Shown here: one piece after another, positions 6,858 to 19,600 of the stretch
How the letters are laid out: each line of letters begins with the position of its first letter
How positions within the stretch are numbered: position 1 is the first letter of the stretch
The notes under the pieces: generated by a model
Databases searched by the model: none
Seen by the model: only the letters and a program-made list of their open reading frames with translations
What the model was told of the DNA's origin: nothing
Program-made: the position numbers and the translations under genes
From: Eubacteriales bacterium
GTDB lineage: Bacteria > Bacillota > Clostridia > Oscillospirales > CAG-272
DNA: 64,000 bases
Direction of reading: 5' to 3'
Assembly: GCA_045122255.1 (NCBI GenBank)
Contig: JBGVHJ010000130.1
Location: 2,208 to 66,207, forward strand

Positions 6858-7649
6858 TTAAAACTCCCCTTCTTTAAGTCCAAATCCTATTCTCCATACT
6901 TCCCTGTCTGTTTTAATCTCAAATATTTTCACGACAGACTGATATAATTGAGGATGTCGTTCGCAACGAGATGTATCGAATACATAGCGATAATCATCCC
7001 AATTACGGAATTTATGGATGTCATATGTGTTGTAAGTACAGCCTACTATCTTTTGCAAACCTTCATCAACCTTCAAAATGTGGTCGTAAGATGCAACAAG
7101 CATAACCATCTTCATCATCCAAACGAAGCGATCATACCATTCAACGTCATTGGGATCATCATTGCAAACATCAAATTGGTCATAAATAGCCGTAGACCAA
7201 AACCAGGATGCAGAGTCCGCATCCATACCCGCATCAAGAAGAAGTTTCAGTGATTTAATACCATACTCATTTTCAAGAAAGCAAAACAAGGGGTGCAGAC
7301 TATTATCGTTATCGTACGGAATGCGAGGCGATGACACATCCATACCATATTTCAAAAAGACCTCTGTGATTTTAGGAAGGTGAGGAAGATACTGATCATT
7401 AAAATACCCGTCTGGGCCAACCAGTTCTCCATAAATATGCTCAAGCAATCCCCATCCGTGTCCTGAAGTAGGGCCGAGAGGATCAGCTCCTTTTTTCAGA
7501 AGTTCTTCTACTGTATGAAAGTTTATACTCTCTTTTTGACATTCTTCGTATAGCTTTTTATTCAGTTCGATTTCTTCTGGCGTGTATATCCCCTCATATT
7601 TTTGCGTGTGTTCACGTTCGTAGTCGTTTGTATATTCGTATTCGCCCAC
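6858..7649 (-). CDS. hypothetical protein (one ankyrin-like LLKKGADP motif)
   Basis: A 263-aa ORF tightly packed between neighbours (2-nt gap to the GNAT gene). No family is recognised with confidence. Confidence 0.6.
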   Translation of the reverse strand: MGEYEYTNDYEREHTQKYEGIYTPEEIELNKKLYEECQKESINFHTVEELLKKGADPLGPTSGHGWGLLEHIYGELVGPDGYFNDQYLPHLPKITEVFLKYGMDVSSPRIPYDNDNSLHPLFCFLENEYGIKSLKLLLDAGMDADSASWFWSTAIYDQFDVCNDDPNDVEWYDRFVWMMKMVMLVASYDHILKVDEGLQKIVGCTYNTYDIHKFRNWDDYRYVFDTSRCERHPQLYQSVVKIFEIKTDREVWRIGFGLKEGEF

Positions 7650-9894: not shown

Positions 9895-10069
9895 TTAATT
9901 CTCCGTTATTTTAGCGCCGAGCGAGATTTCGCGCGGCTTCCTTTTTTTGATTTTTCAACAATTTTTGCTTACGGCAATCAAAAAACACAATATGATGGCT
10001 TGTGTGCTTTGATTGCCGCCCAACCCCCGAAGGGGTTGGGTGGCGGGAATTCGCTAAAAGCTAATTATA

Positions 10070-13000
10070 TTAGCCGTAAATTGTCATCAAAGAGGAAACA
10101 TACTGACCAAACCATGTTCCAAGCCAATCCATAGATTGCTGGTCATAGTGTGCAGTATCATGCGCCTGAGTGCTCATGAGTGAAGTATCAATGTATGCAG
10201 AGTTGTAGATCGCTCCACCGGTAGGATTGAAGTGCATACCGGGAGCGTCAACTTTGCCATACAGTGCACTATACTCTGTAAGGGTACCGGGCACATACCA
10301 GATTCCTGCATTGTTTACCTTTGCGGCATTAACGATACTACTGTTCTTCCAAAGGGTGAGATTATCCTTACCATAAGGTGCAATACCTGCTGTGATAAAT
10401 CCGATACCACTACCGGGAACAGAACCGTTAGGTCGAGTTGCGTACTTAGCAAACTTAATACGGAAATTCTGAACAAGTGTCTGCTCATTTACTGCATAGT
10501 TGTTTGCGCAAGTCTCAGCTTTCTCAATTGCATCATTTTCACCCTGCATCCAAAGCAAGCTGCGGATCTGTACATCATATCCCTCTGCTACAAGGTCTTC
10601 TACACAATCCTCAACGTAATCCATCATCTTCTGCGACAGGTTCGCATTCTGTCTCCAATGGAGATCGAGGTTTGTACCGGGTGCAGTATACTTGATAATG
10701 AACCATTGCTGATCCTTAAGTCCTTCGGTGGTAGCAAGGTGATATGCCAATGCCGCCTCGGGACCGAATGTGGTATCATAGTATCCGCCGATACCGAAGG
10801 CGTACTTTTCGAATCCTGAGTTTTCATTCTGAGTGAATACGTTTACGCCATCATTGGTATATACGTTCTTATACTTAATGTATACATTCTTGTAATCAAC
10901 ATTAGCAAATTTATTGATAGCATTCTGATCGATTACAGTTGCACCAGCAGCGTTAGACTGACCGGAAAGAACGATTACGTTAACGTTAGGCTTTTCGGTA
11001 TCCTTGAAGGATTCACCACCGAAGTTGGACTTCATCTTGATCGTCCAGTCGGTGACCTTTTGAATACCATCCTCAAAAACGACTACCCAAGTGATAGTGT
11101 GAGTGCTTCCGGCTGCAAAATCGCTAAGAGTGAGCTTGGTATTTGCAACAATACCTTCATTACCATACTGATCAATAAATCCTTGATAGTTAGGATCACT
11201 CTGAACAAGCTTCTTGAAGTAGTCAGGAGCACTGTACTTGAGAGTTTCAACATCACCGTCAATGTAGTATCCTACACCTACAACAGGTTCATCATAACCC
11301 GTGATAAATCCTACACCAACTGTAGTCCAAGGAAGAGCTTCAGTAATAGTCAAACCATACTGACCATTGCCCATATTAACATACCATCCTGAAGGAGACA
11401 GTTCCTTCCAATTATTCGGGTACTTATCAACAAGATACTCACACTCACCAAACCAGTTAAAGAATCCGGTTGCCTGCTCACCATTTGCCCCTCCGGGGAA
11501 CTCACCCAAATAAGGATATGCGACACTGGGATAAGGATCATTTGCGGACGAAGAGTAATTCTTATAGAAAAGAGGACTATTGTTACCAAGATAGAACTGG
11601 AAGGGATCGAACCAATACTGCTTATGAGCATTATTTCCTTCGAGCATAGTTGTGTTCACTACCTCGATCGTACAAGTAGCACTTGTCACCTTTCCGGTGA
11701 TCTTATTGGTATAGCTTATGGTAACAGTCTTCTTACCTACAGTCGTCATATCAACAGAGCTAATATCGAAGTTAGTAATATCGCCCTTTGTACCGTCGGA
11801 TGCAATTGCATTTACAGTAAAGTCTGCGGTTGTAAGTCTATCCGAAGGCTTGAACATTGTCTTCTTAGGAGTTACAATAATCGCATTGAAATCATCCTTG
11901 ACGTCTACCCAAATGTTAGTGCTAACAGTCTTTTCATTCTCAGTGTATGTAATAGTGAGGTTCTTCTTACCGCCTATTGTCATATCGTGCTCGCTAACCG
12001 TATATTCATTGTCAGCAAGTGTCTTAGAAGAATGATAAGCATAGTTAGCCTTTACAGTGAGATGCAATGTATCTCCAACCACATAAAGGGTCTGAGATCC
12101 TTCGGTGGACAAGCTCACAGGCTGCTTAGCAGTTACTCTGCACCAAGTATTATAGGTATTACCGTCGATGGTAACGGAATGAGCCACGTTCTCGACAACC
12201 TCGCAATACTTTGCCAGCTTGATGGAGGAATTATCCAAGATGCCTGGGTCGGTCGGCTTAGCATCAGGATTTTCTTTAAGGATATTTTCAAAAACACCGG
12301 TATATGTGGGATCCTGGCGATATGCCTTATCGATCAGCATTACACCGTCGTGGATGGTGATGAAGGGTTCGTCACCCTCATAACCGTTGGTGCAGTTAAA
12401 CGCACCGTTGTTGCGGTTCTTGGTGTCGTTGGGAGTGTTGTTATACAAGAAGTAACCGCCATAGATGTTCATATTTCCGCCGGTACCTGCATAAATGAGA
12501 GCGCGGTTGCTGTTCTCATTCTTCATACTACCATTGGCGAAGTCATTGTTGCCGTCTTTGTCAACAGGAGTGCCAATGGGGTCGCCTGCATAACCGTCAG
12601 CAATGAATGCACCGCCGTAGATATCTACATAAGAAGGATCTGCAAAAGGAGCCCATACTGCATAGATGGAGCTCTCCATCTTAATGAAACCGCCGCCCTT
12701 GCGGTCGATAATGTTCAAGCTGCCATTTTTGTCTACAAAGAACAGAGCGCCAACATCCTGATTGCCGTTATAAGTATCGCTGCACTTTACAGTGATCTTG
12801 TGACCGTTCAAGTCAATGGCAACATTTTCACCTACAATATTGACGGCGTTATACCACATGGTTTTTCCGTCAGTACTTTTCGCTTTGTGGTCTTCGCTAC
12901 GGTCTGTGCTGCCGGCTTCCAGATTGATATCCAGATCCTTGGTCAGCTTGATTTCTACGTTGCTCTCCTTTACTGCATCACGCAGCTCTTCAAGAGTGCT

Positions 13001-14113
13001 CACGGACTTTTCAGTATAAGTAAACTCATAAGGGCTAAAGCTTGCGGTCTTAAAGGTAATAGTACCTGCAACCTCGTCGTAAACTGCGTCCTCAATGAGA
13101 ACACCGTTATGGTATGCCTGCATTGCCGCGAGAGCGTTAGGAGCCTCGACAACAACGGTTACCATCTGATCCTCGGTGAGGTTAGACTTGAGGTTTGTTA
13201 CCTTGATATCGTATGCATAAGCCTTGATATTCTCGCCCTCGATCTGAGGCTCGATACCGTCAAAGGTTACGGTAACGGGCTTTGTGGGATCAAGGATCGC
13301 GTCTGCAGGAACGGTAACCTTTGCGATCTTAAGTCCCTCGTTGGACAGGTCGAACTGAATGTTATCCTCGCCTGCTACGAGTGTCTTGGTCTCGGTTGCA
13401 AGAATAGTGGTGTCAGCGAAATCGTCGAAGGTTGCATCCTTGTCGTAATCATCGCCGAAGCTATCCGACTCATAGGAGGTCTGAGTAGCTATAACGTTAA
13501 TGCCAAATTCAATGGAAGGAGGATTTTTACCGTCGTGGTTAGCCTCGTTTCCAACTGTTTCGGGCATGTCTACCTTAATGAATGCATAATGAGAATCACC
13601 GGGGAAAAGATCCTGGTTGTTTCTGAACACGTTAACATTCTTAAAGGAAGTAGTGTTCTCGTAAGCAACGCCATTCTCACCGGAGAATGCAAGCATCATG
13701 GCAATATCGCCAATGTCATTAGCCTGCTGAACGAGAGTGCTTACAGTAAGAATATCAGAAAGAACAATGTCGCCACCGTCCTTGTTCTTACCAACAGTTT
13801 CATTGATAATATTCATGTTTGCAGAATATTTCAATGCAAGCGAACCCTTGTTGGTGATCTTAAGAGCAACCACCTCGGTGTGTCCGGGCTCCCAAAGTCC
13901 TATAGAGAAGAGGTCCTCTGCACCGTCAAGATCATTCCACGTTTTTCCGTCGAGAGTATACTGAACCTCTATATCGAGATTTCCGCTGGTTATTACGTTG
14001 CTGCCTGAAGAAACACTGTCGGTAAACCAAGCGAAGGTTGTACCGAGAAGCATTGAAAAGCAAAGCAACAAGGATATAAAGCTCAGCAATAACGATCTTT
14101 TAGTATGTTTCAT
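10070..14113 (-). CDS. Large secreted multidomain protein: SipW-type signal peptide, TasA/camelysin-like N-domain, beta-helix-like region, Ig-like repeats and a C-terminal SASA/GQSN (sialate O-acetylesterase-like) domain
   Basis: The N-terminus is MKHTKRSLLLSFISLLLCFSMLLGTTFAWFTDSVSSGSNVITSGNLDIEV, i.e. the SipW-cognate class motif. The MPETVGNEAN motif is shared with the upstream paralog. The C-terminus has VIVLSGQSNAAG..LLWMQGENDA. An AAGGAGA RBS is present, with a 15-nt gap to the upstream gene. Confidence 0.85.
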   Translation of the reverse strand: MKHTKRSLLLSFISLLLCFSMLLGTTFAWFTDSVSSGSNVITSGNLDIEVQYTLDGKTWNDLDGAEDLFSIGLWEPGHTEVVALKITNKGSLALKYSANMNIINETVGKNKDGGDIVLSDILTVSTLVQQANDIGDIAMMLAFSGENGVAYENTTSFKNVNVFRNNQDLFPGDSHYAFIKVDMPETVGNEANHDGKNPPSIEFGINVIATQTSYESDSFGDDYDKDATFDDFADTTILATETKTLVAGEDNIQFDLSNEGLKIAKVTVPADAILDPTKPVTVTFDGIEPQIEGENIKAYAYDIKVTNLKSNLTEDQMVTVVVEAPNALAAMQAYHNGVLIEDAVYDEVAGTITFKTASFSPYEFTYTEKSVSTLEELRDAVKESNVEIKLTKDLDINLEAGSTDRSEDHKAKSTDGKTMWYNAVNIVGENVAIDLNGHKITVKCSDTYNGNQDVGALFFVDKNGSLNIIDRKGGGFIKMESSIYAVWAPFADPSYVDIYGGAFIADGYAGDPIGTPVDKDGNNDFANGSMKNENSNRALIYAGTGGNMNIYGGYFLYNNTPNDTKNRNNGAFNCTNGYEGDEPFITIHDGVMLIDKAYRQDPTYTGVFENILKENPDAKPTDPGILDNSSIKLAKYCEVVENVAHSVTIDGNTYNTWCRVTAKQPVSLSTEGSQTLYVVGDTLHLTVKANYAYHSSKTLADNEYTVSEHDMTIGGKKNLTITYTENEKTVSTNIWVDVKDDFNAIIVTPKKTMFKPSDRLTTADFTVNAIASDGTKGDITNFDISSVDMTTVGKKTVTISYTNKITGKVTSATCTIEVVNTTMLEGNNAHKQYWFDPFQFYLGNNSPLFYKNYSSSANDPYPSVAYPYLGEFPGGANGEQATGFFNWFGECEYLVDKYPNNWKELSPSGWYVNMGNGQYGLTITEALPWTTVGVGFITGYDEPVVGVGYYIDGDVETLKYSAPDYFKKLVQSDPNYQGFIDQYGNEGIVANTKLTLSDFAAGSTHTITWVVVFEDGIQKVTDWTIKMKSNFGGESFKDTEKPNVNVIVLSGQSNAAGATVIDQNAINKFANVDYKNVYIKYKNVYTNDGVNVFTQNENSGFEKYAFGIGGYYDTTFGPEAALAYHLATTEGLKDQQWFIIKYTAPGTNLDLHWRQNANLSQKMMDYVEDCVEDLVAEGYDVQIRSLLWMQGENDAIEKAETCANNYAVNEQTLVQNFRIKFAKYATRPNGSVPGSGIGFITAGIAPYGKDNLTLWKNSSIVNAAKVNNAGIWYVPGTLTEYSALYGKVDAPGMHFNPTGGAIYNSAYIDTSLMSTQAHDTAHYDQQSMDWLGTWFGQYVSSLMTIYG

Positions 14114-14128
14114 ATTGCTATCTCCTTA

Positions 14129-15616
14129 TTAGTCGATTGCGGAAACGGTCCACCAACCGTCTGCGCCTTGTACTGCCTCATAGCCTTCTGCTACAAATGC
14201 AGAGGGATCAAATTCGAAGGTTCCGCCGTATATGGTGACAGTACCTCCGTTAGCCGCGGTGATCCACTTTGTTTTGGAGGTATTGCTACCGCCCTTACCA
14301 AAGGTACCGCCGTTTACAACGATGGATGCGTTCTGACCAGCATAGAGAACACCGTGTCTGTAATAAGCCCCCTCGTATCTGAAATCGCCTCCGTTAATAA
14401 TAACTTCAGCGCTTTCAAGGCTGGCCGCATAAACCAAATAACCGATATTGGTTCCGTATGCGGTGGATGTGACCGAACCAGAGTTGACGGTAACCTTACC
14501 ACCCTGTACGTTCAGTCCTCCTCTTTCAGCATTCAGAACAAGATCGTTAATCTCAACCTCGCCGGCTTTGACGTGGAAGCCGTATTTCGAGCCCTTAACC
14601 TCAATGTTCAGATTGTTAATGTAAAGAGTTCCCCAGTTCTCGATGGAGCCCTTCATATTGTTAACAATAGTTCCGTCTCCGGTGATCTCAAGATCACCAC
14701 GGTTAACGATTACGTAATCATCATCGGTTCCGCTTATGGTAGAGTTGTTTGTGTTCAGCGAAAGAGACTTGTCTTCAGCAAGCTCTTCCTTTACATCGGT
14801 GAGATTCATATTCTCGATCTTACCGACTCCGCCCTCTACAAACGCCTTATGGAGATCTTCATTGTTGTAGATCTCATGTACGGTAGGCTGGTCTACGTTG
14901 GCATCATACTGATTATCGAAGCTATCACTCTCGTGCGTAAACTGAGTTGCAAAGAGACGAATGCCAAGCTCTATGTAAGGAGCCTCGGTACCGGGCATTG
15001 TATTTGCCTCGTTTCCTACTGTCTCGGGCATTGTAAGGACGAGCGCGATCACCTGCGCTGTTTCTTCGCCGGGAAGAAGAGGAGAATCCTCTCTGATCTT
15101 CGCATCAGCGGATGAAAGCGTGTTAAGAGTTACGTTGCTCAACGCGCTCTCACGGGTTCCGAACATAGCGGGCATCAAGATATTCGCATAGTTGAAGCCC
15201 GAGCTGTATTCGTCCTGAACATACGCTCCGACCATAAGATAATCGGAAAGCTTGAATTCCTCGCCATATACGTTCGTTGCACCTTCCTCGTTGGCGATGT
15301 TTAAGGAAAGCAGATATTTAAGTGCAAGAGTTCCTGCATTAGACACTCTCAAATATACGACCTCGGTATATCCGGGCTCGTAAAGCGCGCCGTCTTTGAA
15401 AATCTTGGTGCTTTCATCAACGGGTGCCCACTCGTCAGACCAATTCGTCTTATACTCAAGAGCAACGTCTAATGAACCGGCTTGAATAATGTTATTCCCG
15501 CTCGTTACACTATCCGTAAACCACGCGTATGTCGTACCTATAAGCATGGTAAAGCAAATAAACAAAGATACAATGCTTACGACCAGTGCGCGTTTCGTGG
15601 TTTTCATGTTAGTCAT
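14129..15616 (-). CDS. Secreted TasA/camelysin-like protein with SipW-type signal peptide and C-terminal beta-helix-like repeats
   Basis: The N-terminus is MTNMKTTKRALVVSIVSLFICFTMLIGTTYAWFTDSVTSGNNIIQAGSLDV. The N-domain is paralogous to that of 10070..14113 (LTMPETVGNEAN, ESDSFDNQYD). The C-terminus has G-rich beta-helix-like repeats (GGKVTVNSG, INGGDF, VNGGTF, IYGGTF). An AAGGAGG RBS is present. Confidence 0.85.
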   Translation of the reverse strand: MTNMKTTKRALVVSIVSLFICFTMLIGTTYAWFTDSVTSGNNIIQAGSLDVALEYKTNWSDEWAPVDESTKIFKDGALYEPGYTEVVYLRVSNAGTLALKYLLSLNIANEEGATNVYGEEFKLSDYLMVGAYVQDEYSSGFNYANILMPAMFGTRESALSNVTLNTLSSADAKIREDSPLLPGEETAQVIALVLTMPETVGNEANTMPGTEAPYIELGIRLFATQFTHESDSFDNQYDANVDQPTVHEIYNNEDLHKAFVEGGVGKIENMNLTDVKEELAEDKSLSLNTNNSTISGTDDDYVIVNRGDLEITGDGTIVNNMKGSIENWGTLYINNLNIEVKGSKYGFHVKAGEVEINDLVLNAERGGLNVQGGKVTVNSGSVTSTAYGTNIGYLVYAASLESAEVIINGGDFRYEGAYYRHGVLYAGQNASIVVNGGTFGKGGSNTSKTKWITAANGGTVTIYGGTFEFDPSAFVAEGYEAVQGADGWWTVSAID

Positions 15617-15794
15617 TTTAAAATTACCTCCTTATTATGATATTTTTGCAAGACTAACTATGTATCGTGAAATTGCCGCTACACATCTTTGCTCTCATCG
15701 GTTCTCCGTCTCGACCGTCTGTCCGAGCACTGTTCAGGCTTCAATCCTCATCCGGACGGTTTCCGCAAAGCCACTCAAATACGAGCAAATATGA

Positions 15795-15819
15795 CATAAC
15801 GAGAGTTATGTGATATTTT
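15795..15819. repeat. Left arm of a perfect 25-bp inverted repeat (CATAACGAGAGTTATGTGATATTTT)
   Basis: It is the exact reverse complement of 16048..16072. The arm itself contains the palindrome CATAAC-GAGA-GTTATG. Confidence 0.95.
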
Positions 15820-15849
15820 ATAGCCAGTATTTCTCCATACATTTATCAT

Positions 15850-15878
15850 ATTATAACATATGACGTTGAAAAAATCAA
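15850..15878 (-). promoter_or_regulatory. Near-consensus promoter inside the invertible segment, currently facing the TasA-like operon (ON orientation)
   Basis: The minus strand reads TTGATT (15878..15873), a 17-nt spacer ending in TGT, and TATAAT (15855..15850). This is an extended -10, about 30 nt from IR-L and about 230 nt upstream of ATG 15616. Confidence 0.6.
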
Positions 15879-16047
15879 CCGTTTTGACAAAACTTTTTAC
15901 ATATTAATAAAAATTTATTGATTTTCACTTAAAAAATTGCACAGCAAAGCTACCTTTCGTACACTTTTTAAAGAAAAAAGCGTGCGGAAGGCTTTTGTTG
16001 TGCGTTTTTTTGTTTGGAATTGCTCGGTGCTTTTGTGCATTCCGTCC

Positions 16048-16072
16048 AAAATATCACATAACTCTCGTTATG
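16048..16072. repeat. Right arm of the perfect 25-bp inverted repeat (AAAATATCACATAACTCTCGTTATG)
   Basis: It is the exact reverse complement of 15795..15819 and lies 35 nt from the stop codon of the tyrosine recombinase gene. Confidence 0.95.
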
Positions 16073-16106
16073 CAAATTTCGTCTCGGTGCGCAGCATCGG
16101 GACTTT

Positions 16107-16946
16107 TTATATGATCAGCCGCATATGCTCCATCCTTTTTCTGTGCTCCGCGCCGGTTGTGACGATATAGATGCGTGTCGTGTTGATGCTTGCATGCCCG
16201 AGAATATCCGCAAGCTTGGCGATATCCTTATCCATACGGTAAAATGTCCTTGCAAACAGGTGCCTCAGATTATGTGGAAAGACCTTGCTTTCGGGCACGT
16301 TTGCCTGAAGGCAGAGCGCCTTCATATCCTTCCAGATACTGTTTCTGCTGACGGGTCTTCCACTTCTTGTGACAAATACCGGACCCGAAACGATCCCGCG
16401 AGCCTTAACGTATCGGAGCAGCTTTTTCTTCAGCTTAGGCACAATAAAAATACGTCTGTTTTTCCCCTTGCAGTTTACCGTCGCTTCCCCACTTCGCAAA
16501 GCTTCCACGGTGATATATTCCAGCTCGCTCACGCGTATACCCGTACCGCAGATCGTTTGTATAATAAGATTAAGGCGCTCATTATGCCTTGCATTCGCCG
16601 CCCCGATCAGTCTGATATACTCCGTGCGAGTCAGCTCCCTATCCTCCGAGCAGTAAGCTTCCCTTTGAACTCTGAATTGCTTGACACAGAGATCGTGCCA
16701 TCCGCAAAACCTAAAAAAGCAATTCATCGCCGCTATCATTGAGTTCGCACTTGCCACCGCGTACGTCTCTCCGAGCTTGCTTTTGTAGTCAAGTATACTC
16801 CGCTTGTCGATCTCCTCACTCTGAACAAATTTTGAAAAACGCTTTACGTCACGCACATATTTCTCGACCGTTGCGCGGCTTCTTTCTTCGTTTATCAAAT
16901 AAATTTCAAATTCCTGTATTTTTTGCGATGATAATTTTCTTCTCAT
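16107..16946 (-). CDS. Tyrosine site-specific recombinase (XerC/D-integrase family; candidate invertase)
   Basis: It has an N-terminal SAM-like core-binding domain and the catalytic residues in GTGIRVSEL (R), HNLRHLFA (HxxR) and LGHASINTTRIY (H..Y). An RBS GAAGGGGA is present. Confidence 0.88.
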   Translation of the reverse strand: MRRKLSSQKIQEFEIYLINEERSRATVEKYVRDVKRFSKFVQSEEIDKRSILDYKSKLGETYAVASANSMIAAMNCFFRFCGWHDLCVKQFRVQREAYCSEDRELTRTEYIRLIGAANARHNERLNLIIQTICGTGIRVSELEYITVEALRSGEATVNCKGKNRRIFIVPKLKKKLLRYVKARGIVSGPVFVTRSGRPVSRNSIWKDMKALCLQANVPESKVFPHNLRHLFARTFYRMDKDIAKLADILGHASINTTRIYIVTTGAEHRKRMEHMRLII

Positions 16947-16977
16947 ATTATTTCCCCTTCATAGAACTGTCCCATTA

Positions 16978-17007
16978 ATTATAACAAAATTCCGTTCGAT
17001 TATTCAA
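16978..17007 (-). promoter_or_regulatory. Candidate promoter of the recombinase gene (TTGAAT-18-TGTTATAAT)
   Basis: On the minus strand, TTGAAT is at 17007..17002 and TATAAT at 16983..16978, preceded by TGT. Confidence 0.45.
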
Positions 17008-17057
17008 AAACTCAGCAACTTCAAGGCTTTGATCATTTATATATACGTCACAAATTA

Positions 17058-17099
17058 CAAAAGCGCAAGGCATCCAAAGAGAAAGCCTTGCGCTTTTTT
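17058..17099 (-). terminator. Intrinsic terminator after the endonuclease I-family gene
   Basis: AAAGCGCAAGGC..GCCUUGCGCUUU is a 12-bp stem with flanking T/A runs on both strands. Confidence 0.75.
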
Positions 17100-17152
17100 A
17101 TCACTGCACGTCGGCACACCGACGAATGCAAAAATACAATTTTTTAATCCAT

Positions 17153-19285
17153 TTATTCTGTCAGGACGTATATTACCACGTCGAGCTGCTGCGAGCCCTC
17201 TGCATAGCACGAAAACAGTGAGCTGGTTTTGTTATATTTAATAAGATTTCTGCTATACGAGCCTTGCGATTTGATCACCGCAGTGCCGTCGGAATTGACC
17301 GTAATGCTCCAGCTTCCGTTGGCATCAAGCGTCGCCTTTGTTCTGAGATAATTATTACTTGAGCTTGCCGCATACAGATACCCGGTGCCGTCTATGTTAA
17401 AAGCAAAGGTGCCGCTAACGGCTCCCGATTCCAACGTAATGATCTGAACCGCTTGAGACGGAGCTGCGAGGCGGTCATCTTCCCTTTCTATCGCGGTCTG
17501 TCCTCGGTTGTTTCCGTTCTGAGTGGTACTCATAGCAAAGCTATGATCCCTCGCGGCAATGATTATCCGATCACCGACCGAAAGCTGAGACACATCCGTA
17601 ACAAGCCTCCAAACGGGCTCGGTCGGCTCATCCTCTTCCCCGAGGTCGATGGCGGTTATCACCGTGTGTCCTTTTATCTGCAGGTCTCTTATCTCTTCAT
17701 CCGTATAAATATTTGTACTCGTGACACCGTCAACGGTCTCTCTGACCTCCCAAGCGAGGTTCTCACTATCCGACAAATCTATGTCAGGGGCAATATTTTT
17801 CAGAGGAGCGTCATTAATTTTATAGAGATCGGAGGCGGTCACTCCGTCAATAGTTCCGTTGGTAACTCTGACAAGGTATTCAGTTCCGATATTGCTTTCC
17901 TTCACTCCGTTAAGGACTACGTCCGCCTTTTTCGCATAATCGATCAAGGTATTATGCATGTGCTTCTCGGCAGGTGTCGTATTGGTTGAGACATAGAGTC
18001 GCGTGTAAACGTATTCGAGCACGCTATAGGTCTCCGTAACGTCTCCCACGGTGACGGTTATACGCTTCCCGATATTTTGCAGAGGCATGCCTTGTTCCGA
18101 TATCCATACCGGATATCCGTACACTGTTAATTGCTTCCCGTTCTCAACAAACGGTTTAATTTTCAATTGAATGTAGTTATTTTCACCATCAAAGCAGAAA
18201 ACCGAGGGCTTTTCGGGCGAAGCAAACATGAATTTAAGCGTGTCGCCGTAATAAATATTGTTGTAAAACGGTCTTTCGGTTTCAGGGAATTCAGGCGTGG
18301 GAGCATCGGGAATTTCTGCTCCTTCGCCACCTTCGTTACCCCCTTCTCCGCCACCCTGAGGAGGTGTGGGCAGCTCCCCGTCAAGGGCAGAAAGCGAGGG
18401 AGTTATCATGCCTTCAGGGACCTCTTTTTCATAAAGAAGCCAAGCAAGCTCGGGGTAGTCGATAAATACGTTTCGGTTGCCCTGAATGTTCTGGACCACC
18501 TCGTTTCTTCCCATTTCCCAGGTATCAACGGGGTCAAGCTCGCACCATTCAAGGAGAACGTCTACGCTTTGGAACACCTCGGTGATGCTGTCAGCACCCC
18601 AATCTTCGCCCCAGCGCACGTAAACGTAAAGGCATATTCTTGCAACGTCGCCCTTGACGTTATCAAGCGGCTCGAAATAATTAGAATTGTAGGTTCCACC
18701 AAGCACTCCTACAGCGGGATTGCTTCCGTACTTTTCACTCGGAGAATTTCCCGATTCGCCGTATTTTTTATTACTTCGGGAGCTATTCACCCCCGCGTCG
18801 GACGGGCGAACATGATGCAAGTCCGCTCCACCACCCGTGGTGTTGCCGCCGCCGAGGCTTTGAGGCCAAACGTGTTCCCTGTTCCAACCGTTCCACTGAT
18901 CCATAGTCGCCTGATAGGATGTGTAAAGCAGGGTCACCTTGCCATTGCCATTTTCGCAGTCGGTCACGTCCGCTTTATAGTGACAGTCATCGTAAGAGGA
19001 CACCTTTGAATGAGTATCTGTCATAAGAGAGTGAAGGGAGCTCTTCAACACGCTTGAAGACAACGTGATCAAAGTGTCAAAGGAATAGCTTCCAGTATAA
19101 TAGGAATATGCGCTCGTTCCGTCCAAGGAGGTGCACCACACGCCGCGCGTGCCGGAGTTGTATTCCTTCGAATAGGTCTGCACTTGAGCGGCGTCCGCCC
19201 ACATCGGAAGGTGAAATGCTGTAAAAATAACGCTCACGAATATTAAGAGTGCCGCAATTTTTGTTGCCATTCTTTTCGGTCGCAT
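17153..19285 (-). CDS. Secreted endonuclease I-family nuclease with a long C-terminal extension
   Basis: The motifs NREHVWPQSLGG, DLHHVRPSDAGVNSSRSNKKYG, KGDVARICLYV and GNRNVFIDYPELA match the Endonuclease_1 (EndA/Vvn/Bsn-like) pattern. The signal peptide is MATKIAALLIFVSVIFTAF. The start is set at ATG 19285 with an AGGAG RBS. The C-terminal domain (WRLVTDVSQLSVGDRIIIAA..WSITVNSDGTAVIK) is homologous to a domain in 19601..22414. Confidence 0.85.
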   Translation of the reverse strand: MRPKRMATKIAALLIFVSVIFTAFHLPMWADAAQVQTYSKEYNSGTRGVWCTSLDGTSAYSYYTGSYSFDTLITLSSSVLKSSLHSLMTDTHSKVSSYDDCHYKADVTDCENGNGKVTLLYTSYQATMDQWNGWNREHVWPQSLGGGNTTGGGADLHHVRPSDAGVNSSRSNKKYGESGNSPSEKYGSNPAVGVLGGTYNSNYFEPLDNVKGDVARICLYVYVRWGEDWGADSITEVFQSVDVLLEWCELDPVDTWEMGRNEVVQNIQGNRNVFIDYPELAWLLYEKEVPEGMITPSLSALDGELPTPPQGGGEGGNEGGEGAEIPDAPTPEFPETERPFYNNIYYGDTLKFMFASPEKPSVFCFDGENNYIQLKIKPFVENGKQLTVYGYPVWISEQGMPLQNIGKRITVTVGDVTETYSVLEYVYTRLYVSTNTTPAEKHMHNTLIDYAKKADVVLNGVKESNIGTEYLVRVTNGTIDGVTASDLYKINDAPLKNIAPDIDLSDSENLAWEVRETVDGVTSTNIYTDEEIRDLQIKGHTVITAIDLGEEDEPTEPVWRLVTDVSQLSVGDRIIIAARDHSFAMSTTQNGNNRGQTAIEREDDRLAAPSQAVQIITLESGAVSGTFAFNIDGTGYLYAASSSNNYLRTKATLDANGSWSITVNSDGTAVIKSQGSYSRNLIKYNKTSSLFSCYAEGSQQLDVVIYVLTE

Positions 19286-19600
19286 ACAAAATCTCCTTTT
19301 TATGTTTTTAAAGATAAAATCGTCTTCAAAAACAGTATAACACATAAAAAGTGGAAAGTAAAGTAATTTTTTTATTTTTATGTGTTGCCTGCGCAAAAAT
19401 CAGCATCAGCATTATTTCTCGCTTTTGCTTTAGTTTTTGGCACATTTTGAGCAATGCGATCTTATTTTGCAAAATAAACAAAATTATGTCCAAAAAACCC
19501 TGAAAATTTACTCGTTTTTCGTCGATTTTGCCAATTTACTTATATATTGGCTTATGTTATAATGATGCTTGTGGAAAAAACACAGAAAGGAAGAGAAAAC

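Follow-up and report, generated by a model that had tools for sequence, protein, structure and literature searches.

A probable promoter-inversion switch beside a Xer-like recombinase gene, upstream of two secreted surface proteins of an uncultured gut Clostridium

Layout of the locus

In the 64,000-nucleotide (nt) stretch of Eubacteriales DNA analysed here (GCA_045122255.1, contig JBGVHJ010000130.1, positions 2,208 to 66,207; hereafter, the window), a perfect inverted repeat encloses a 228-bp segment, with a gene for a Xer-like tyrosine recombinase on one side and two genes for secreted proteins on the other. We conclude with considerable confidence that this segment (15820-16047) is a promoter-inversion phase-variation switch beside a Xer-like invertase, by means of which an uncultured gut Clostridium probably turns the two secreted surface proteins on and off. 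Promoter-inversion switches are a known kind of element, and the present locus is a well-supported new example. The orientation in which the promoter faces the operon, as it does in the assembled window, is called ON, and the reverse OFF. The features of the locus are as follows, from the end of the operon to the promoter region of the recombinase gene.

10070..14113, minus strand: second gene of the putatively regulated pair, for a secreted protein of 1347 amino acids (aa) with a SipW-type signal, Big_3 repeats and a SASA-type carbohydrate esterase domain
14129..15616, minus strand: first gene of the pair; its 495-aa secreted product carries a SipW-type signal peptide and combines a TasA-like N-terminal domain with a beta-solenoid at the C-terminus
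15617..15794, minus strand: 178-nt leader from the switch to the first gene, with the ribosome-binding site AAGGAGG at 15627-15633
15795..15819, plus strand: operon-proximal repeat arm (core site 15795-15810, inner extension 15811-15819)
15820..16047, no strand assigned: invertible segment of 228 bp, in the opposite orientation in contig L068 and in both orientations in relatives
15850..15878, minus strand: predicted switch promoter, TTGATT-17-(TG)-TATAAT, facing the operon as assembled (consensus scan, 10/12 matches)
15931..16012, no strand assigned: predicted bidirectional intrinsic terminator within the segment (A-run 15931-15936, hairpin 15939-16003, T-run 16006-16012)
16048..16072, minus strand: recombinase-proximal repeat arm (core CATAA-CGAGAG-TTATG at 16072..16057, inner extension TGATATTTT at 16056..16048)
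16081..16103, plus strand: predicted intrinsic terminator towards the recombinase gene, a putative OFF-state insulator (terminator scan; folding free energy, dG, -15 kcal/mol, z -4.0, then UUUUUAUAU)
16107..16946, minus strand: gene for a Xer-like tyrosine recombinase of 279 aa, the presumed invertase (Pfam Phage_integrase, 4.4e-24, and Phage_int_SAM_1)
16978..17007, minus strand: promoter-like site of the recombinase gene itself, TTGAAT-18-TATAAT with TG (consensus scan, 10/12 matches)

As the original prediction had claimed, the 25-nt arms at 15795-15819 (CATAACGAGAGTTATGTGATATTTT) and 16048-16072 are 100% complementary and 228 nt apart, and they form a unique pair: a search that tolerates up to three mismatches finds the 25-mer at two places in the 64 kb and nowhere else (expectation from shuffled sequence, 0.00), and the window contains no other long inverted repeat with widely spaced arms. 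With exactly two sites, the locus is not a shufflon-like array, which would have more than two. The right arm does adjoin the recombinase gene, as had been described, although it lies 34 nt from the stop codon rather than 35.

That 16107-16946 encodes a tyrosine recombinase was likewise confirmed by its Pfam domains, and the catalytic residues are present (R138, K160/K162, H225, R228, H251, and Y260). The best NCBIfam matches of the protein are XerA, XerD, and XerC, every one of them below the equivalog cut-off (107.5 bits for TIGR02224, cut-off 335; 114.4 for TIGR02225, cut-off 330; 142.6 for NF040815, cut-off 220), while the scores with the FimB and FimE models (NF007370, cut-off 221, and NF007371, cut-off 222) are 26.2 and 20.5 bits. 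The nearest solved structures, by sequence, are those of XerA (4a8e, 5hxy), XerD (1a0p), and XerH (5jjv). The promoter-like site of the gene (17007..16978) lies outside the invertible segment. Further upstream, the minus-strand gene at 17153-19396 has a product of 747 aa that includes an Endonuclease_1 domain (2.2e-36); each of the related species examined has a different gene at this position.

Both orientations in natural samples

Public assemblies were queried for exact copies of the recombinase and of the 495-aa protein, which led to two Logan contigs of run SRR25030057, both of them exact matches to the window (L001, window 16048-18468, and L002, window 11129-15819). L001 stops at 16048 and L002 at 15819—that is, at the segment-facing last bases of the two repeat arms. 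The Logan assembly was made at k=31, which exceeds the 25-nt repeat. In a de Bruijn graph simulated at the same k, the window alone produces no branch near the switch, and the window together with its flipped version produces branches exactly at 15819 and 16048. The contig breaks and the simulation therefore indicate that both orientations are present in the SRR25030057 read set. A flipped allele was also recovered directly from a near-identical strain: contig L068 (SRR25030076) encodes a recombinase, P0003, that is 95% identical to that of the window. The original prediction had suggested building the flipped version in silico, and L068 matches that form, aligning with it end to end at 95.8% identity over 1504 nt. 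Its 25-mer repeat is identical, and its segment is 98.3% identical in the reverse orientation. A scan of Joint Genome Institute (JGI) metagenomes with a 22-mer returned three contigs only (L039-L041) and no flipped copy from the window's species; L041 is a truncated contig in the ON orientation, like the window.

The closest relative for which several samples are available belongs to a closely related species and gives the cleanest comparison. Contigs L062 and L064 encode the same recombinase (P0004, 89% identical to that of the window) and are identical over 900 nt save for a 244-nt block, bounded by ACATAACGAGAGTTATGT, in which 244 of 244 positions are the reverse complement. The approximately 650 nt of flanking sequence contain zero differences, which implies a very recent inversion. 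Another contig, L065 (SRR27608116), ends at the inner edge of the repeat shared by L062 and L064, and contig ends at repeat edges are seen in independent samples, namely SRR25030057, SRR27608116, and that of L013. In two further species, contigs that come from different samples and encode identical recombinases likewise differ in orientation. Thus, the prediction that the segment flips is borne out by the flipped allele, by the breaks at both inner edges in SRR25030057, and by the inverted block of the related species; independent assemblies also support the reading of the assembled orientation as ON, with the predicted promoter inside the segment.

A scan of one genome per species yielded 36 related loci with recombinases 54-80% identical to that of the window, all from gut or rumen metagenome-assembled genomes (Eubacteriales, Clostridia, Acutalibacteraceae, and Oscillospiraceae), and the recombinase gene adjoins the same switch in about 30 species, at a distance of 35-90 nt from the proximal site. 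A core site, CATAAY-NNNN-RTTATG, is found 10-106 nt past the recombinase stop codon in 27 of the 36 loci, with its inverted partner approximately 240-260 nt beyond it. Across the family, the promoter points away from the recombinase gene (ON) in 17 cases and towards it (OFF) in 20, and it occupies mirror positions in the two groups, approximately 67 nt from one repeat or the other.

The two sites of a pair also co-vary. In all of the related loci retrieved, the central 6 nt of the two sites are exactly complementary (48/48 pairs), although seven centre sequences occur (CGAGAG, CAAGAG, TGGGAG, CGGGAG, CGTCTG, CGACAG, and TTTCTA); the CATAA and TTATG arms are fixed throughout. Centres that match within a pair and yet drift between pairs are the pattern expected of a crossover region, since the partners of a tyrosine recombinase must match each other and are otherwise free in sequence. 

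In the species that encodes recombinase P0018 (L052-L061), additional core sites are arrayed in tandem with a period of approximately 31 nt, 40-420 nt past the recombinase stop codon. The spacers tcgcttgtgtgaaaa and aactatacaagattaa can lie on one flank of the segment or the other, with their order permuted and their sequences reverse-complemented, and the sites are arranged as 3+1, 2+2, 1+3, 2+1, or 2+3. These permutations are explained by successive inversions between any two oppositely oriented cores, and because site copies swap sides as reverse complements, the 16-18-nt core is sufficient for recombination. The arrangement is a small, shufflon-like, multi-state version of the switch, and some relatives carry three to five sites in permuted arrangements.

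Several other observations on the related contigs were made along the way. For many members of the family, all known contigs are no more than 1-2 kb long (in the case of recombinase P0091, the longest contig is shorter than 2 kb in 61 of 102 index blocks), which fits routine breakage of metagenome assemblies at the switch. At 6881-7232, contig L011 has copies of the promoter facing outward from both ends of a 352-nt unit, which also contains a 31-nt inverted repeat; this unit may represent either a genuine duplication or a chimera of the two orientations created during assembly. In the P0091 species, an interruption of the switch falls within the hairpin, 62 nt into the segment (L042, 3340-4340, and L047, 1613-2613), and TnpV and DUF6809 genes follow it. 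These species also have TnpV/DUF6809/HTH_3 or resolvase/HTH_3 genes upstream of the recombinase gene. We considered whether L042 and L047 represent an alternative recombination product, with the same recombinase and other downstream genes. Their junction is not at a core site, and they are therefore read as a secondary insertion or rearrangement; they suggest a nearby mobile element or rearrangement.

Predicted control of transcription and rival explanations

The minus-strand promoter claimed by the original prediction at 15878..15850 was found independently by a consensus scan and is a predicted element. An alignment of 27 switches, all set in the same orientation, has as its conserved blocks the two cores, an extended -10 (TGnTATAAT), a -35 (TTGATT), and a hairpin with its A-run and T-run; the -35 and the extended -10 are invariant or nearly so. 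The hairpin at 15939-16003 has a dG of -41.4 kcal/mol (z -5.7). Between the switch and the recombinase gene, the strand opposite the gene carries a hairpin followed by a T-run in 34 of the 36 distinct sequences of the family, compared with none of the 36 on the strand of the recombinase mRNA, when only the bases upstream of the T-run are folded. The 178-nt leader has no further promoter-like site on its minus strand by consensus scan, and an Rfam search of the leader and the switch found no RNA family; its only hits lie beyond the recombinase gene, at 16972-17147, and are all far below the gathering scores. A further proposal, that TTGACA at 15884-15889 belongs to a weaker back-to-back promoter and that inversion swaps promoter strength, is not supported: the hexamer is present, but it has no acceptable -10, it is unconserved in relatives, and in neither orientation could it reach the operon, given its position relative to the internal terminator.

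The two genes downstream of the leader encode proteins that are predicted to be exported. Both exceed the cut-off of 19 bits of the model for SipW-dependent signal peptides (TIGR04088), with 24.6 bits for the 495-aa protein and 21.6 bits for the 1347-aa protein. The 495-aa protein also matches Pfam Peptidase_M73 over residues 8-57 (24 bits, cut-off 22.5), a match that covers only 50 of the 196 profile positions. A PDB sequence search with this protein found no match, and its AlphaFold model (predicted local distance difference test 85.7) consists of an N-terminal beta-sandwich and an unrelated C-terminal beta-solenoid. In a fold search, the TasA fibre 8aur was the sole significant hit (E 1e-4, template-modelling score 0.39 on the target). 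The operon had been called TasA-like; the term applies to the SipW-type signal peptide and the N-terminal domain alone. A GC-rich hairpin lies past the stop codon of the 1347-aa gene (approximately 10016-10046), so that the regulated unit probably extends from 15616 to 10070. Within the 1347-aa gene, an ATG-initiated open reading frame of 794 aa (11624-14008, plus strand) lies wholly antisense and is probably a compositional artefact.

The genes that follow the switch differ among relatives. In some, it precedes operons with a TetR-like regulator, SipW, and TasA-like proteins; in others, it precedes type IV pilin-like genes (L023, L031, and L033) or a CpsC/Wzz capsule gene (L037), and these four loci have the same core site with different 6-bp centres. 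Recombinases 47-50% identical to that of the window occupy the same position beside similar repeats in cultured species. For example, Subdoligranulum variabile has a related recombinase with the same type of core (OY725846, 51.9 kb), and in Pusillibacter faecalis (L070; a locus of strain MM59 is at AP023421, 431 kb) the recombinase-switch layout is found, with a different repeat sequence, upstream of an S-layer-homology protein.

The mechanism that we propose begins with the two inverted, dif-like sites that bound the segment, each with CATAA/TTATG arms as putative binding arms and an asymmetric 6-bp crossover region, CGAGAG. The Xer-like recombinase would synapse the two sites and exchange strands, probably within the 6-bp centre, so that the segment flips. 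In the ON state, as assembled, a sigma-70-type promoter (15878..15850) would direct transcription through the left site and the 178-nt leader into the two-gene unit for the TasA-like/beta-solenoid protein and the large Ig-like/SASA-esterase protein. In the OFF state, transcription from the promoter would run towards the 3' end of the recombinase gene and be halted at the conserved, one-directional terminator at 16081-16103. In either state, the bidirectional terminator (15931-16012) would separate the recombinase gene from the operon, and read-through from the recombinase gene should therefore be unable to turn the operon on. The sites and their covariation, the occurrence of both orientations in natural samples, and the conservation of the promoter and both terminators are observed features of the family.

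Several points weigh against this interpretation. It relies on the product of 16107-16946 as the catalyst of inversion, a role presumed from sequence. The switch promoter and both terminators are consensus or fold predictions, and the transcription start and the effect of orientation on expression are deduced from them. The hairpin in the segment shows modest covariation among the 27 switches (one compensatory GC/AU pair and several G-U changes, with an invariant inner stem), and a protein-binding role of the palindrome is therefore possible. Although most relatives have a SipW gene inside the homologous switch-controlled operon, a search of the 64-kb window with tblastn and a custom SipW hidden Markov model found no SipW peptidase. 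The two orientations in SRR25030057 are read from contig ends and could belong to co-existing strains rather than to one clone, and the JGI contigs L041 (a close relative) and L067 show the ON orientation only.

Three rival explanations were weighed. Inversion might be real but rare, fixed strain by strain, in which case the contig breaks would reflect mixtures of strains in the metagenomes. All of the evidence does come from mixed-community assemblies and not from a clonal culture, and the recombinase gene of L068 differs by approximately 4%, which makes it a different strain. However, the flanks of L062 and L064, without a single difference, point to a very recent event, and the breaks at repeat edges come from independent samples. 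The near 1:1 split between ON and OFF and the multi-step shuffling of sites within one species imply frequent events, and the recombinase is intact in every related locus; we therefore regard rare inversion as unlikely. A switch of the cwpV type, in which transcription comes from an outside promoter (for example, by read-through from that of the recombinase gene) and inversion makes or removes a terminator in the leader RNA, appears less probable again, and we consider it very unlikely. It has a precedent in cwpV itself (PMC2784873), and it would fit the strong, conserved terminator hairpin within the segment as well as the co-directional recombinase gene and operon, which lack a sense-strand terminator after the recombinase gene. 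Yet the most conserved element inside the segment is the near-consensus, extended -10 promoter, which lies downstream of the terminator in the ON state. Since A-runs and T-runs are conserved on both sides of the hairpin, it would terminate in both directions and cannot by itself discriminate between ON and OFF. The conserved antisense terminator beside the recombinase gene, in turn, makes sense only if the promoter of the flipped segment fires outward.

The last rival, which supposes a small mobile element whose termini or att sites would be the repeats, with the recombinase as an integrase or a transposase-like mobility enzyme, is the least probable of the three, and we give it hardly any weight. 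TnpV/DUF6809/HTH or resolvase genes do precede the recombinase gene in two related species, and a TnpV element interrupts the switch in L042 and L047. Against this, that junction is 62 nt inside the segment and off the core site, and the order of recombinase gene, site, 220-250 nt of non-coding sequence, inverted site, and surface operon is kept in about 30 species while the upstream neighbours vary. The segment encodes only a promoter and a terminator, and no phage or transposon genes stand beside the recombinase gene in the window. The similarity of the recombinase to phage integrases is also weak: its best phage homologue, on an unannotated faecal contig, is 43% identical, and annotated phage integrases reach at most 30%.

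Beyond the promoter-inversion switch at this one locus, a wider reading is that the switch is a portable, self-contained cassette derived from Xer/dif, which gut Clostridia have placed before at least five kinds of surface-structure genes. Its parts would be an invertase with its own promoter, a terminator that blocks antisense transcription, dif-like sites with co-evolving centres, a promoter, and a bidirectional terminator. The targets would be TasA-like fibres with SipW, TasA-like/esterase pairs, type IV pilin-like genes, capsule genes, and S-layer-homology proteins, and some species would have expanded the cassette to a multi-site, shufflon-like form with more than two states. Taken jointly, these elements make a reading that we judge to be evenly balanced between right and wrong.

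Significance and comparison with known systems

Phase variation of surface structures is a main route by which gut bacteria vary their adhesion, biofilm formation, and visibility to phages and to the host, and detailed knowledge of it comes mostly from Bacteroides, enterobacteria, and Clostridioides difficile. The present analysis adds a sequence-level account of a switch family in largely uncultured Oscillospiraceae- and Acutalibacteraceae-like Clostridia of herbivore and human guts, including the minimal recombination site, the matching rule for the 6-bp centres, and the insulation by two terminators. A prediction that follows is that only some cells of the population produce TasA-like fibre or adhesin proteins and a large carbohydrate esterase. 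Because cultured bacteria carry related switches (Subdoligranulum variabile, Pusillibacter faecalis, and Monoglobus pectinilyticus), these predictions are testable. Pairs of CATAAY-N4-RTTATG motifs 220-260 bp apart could serve to annotate such switches, and the switch accounts for the breaks in assemblies of these genomes beside the recombinase gene. The searchable literature yielded no description of a switch of this kind in comparable anatomical detail, and no paper with such a switch turned up in searches that combined invertible promoters with TasA or SipW.

The original prediction had likened the layout to fimS with FimB/FimE and to the RecV-dependent cwpV and flgB switches, and the first of these parallels holds better than the second. 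In Escherichia coli, fimS is a non-coding, promoter-bearing segment of approximately 300 bp between short inverted repeats, with a tyrosine recombinase adjacent and a surface fibre operon switched ON and OFF (PMC2784873). The present locus shares with it the adjacent recombinase gene and, as predicted, a promoter inside the segment. However, FimB and FimE are two invertases of approximately 200 aa without an N-terminal SAM-like domain, whereas one Xer-like recombinase is found here, and the repeat contains a dif-like core (16-25 bp). Judged by its sequence, this recombinase belongs with neither the FimB/E-type invertases nor the housekeeping Xer proteins. The internal bidirectional and external antisense terminators are likewise features of the present switch family, unlike fimS.

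The RecV switches of C. difficile (cwpV/Cdi1 and flgB/Cdi4 among others) invert approximately 150-200 bp between repeats of approximately 21 bp (PMC2784873, PMC5386303, and PMC5903667), and the likeness lies in a Firmicute host, a tyrosine recombinase, and inversion upstream of surface-protein genes. The parallel is loose, since cwpV has its promoter outside the switch and is turned OFF by the formation of a terminator, and recV (CD1167) lies far from its several targets (PMC2784873). By comparison of the descriptions, the present locus differs in having its predicted promoter inside, a predicted terminator that is bidirectional, and a recombinase gene beside the switch, which it apparently serves alone (the 64 kb contain two sites). 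A possible counterpart is found in a 2025 survey of a defined gut community, in which inverton group 139 and invertase group 35 are dominated by Clostridia, with 32 of 33 invertons, from 17 strains, beside a tyrosine recombinase; the two examples given (Clostridium sp. D5, 3525576-3525832, and Intestinimonas butyriciproducens DSM 26588, 1750639-1750893) have total lengths of 257 and 255 bp, and the survey describes no site anatomy, terminators, or TasA-like targets (PMC11892184). Compared by geometry and taxonomy only, these lengths match the short class of the present family (L015, L016, L020, L026, and L029).

Xer-related invertases also take part in the phase variation of surface proteins in Mollicutes (for example, Xer1 at the vpma locus of Mycoplasma agalactiae, and the mpl promoter inversions of M. 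penetrans), which belong to another phylum and have other sites and other targets, namely lipoprotein gene families. The recombinase described here shares the two-domain architecture of Xer proteins, which are also its best profile and structure matches. The dif site of E. coli is GGTGCGCATAA-TGTATA-TTATGTTAAAT (PMC3025954), and, in our own comparison, its inner arm sequences and the 6-bp length of its centre are shared by the core CATAA-N6-TTATG. A housekeeping Xer system has one dif site per chromosome and resolves chromosome dimers, whereas here two inverted sites 228 bp apart support inversion. The switch thus appears to be a derivative of Xer/dif that is used for inversion.

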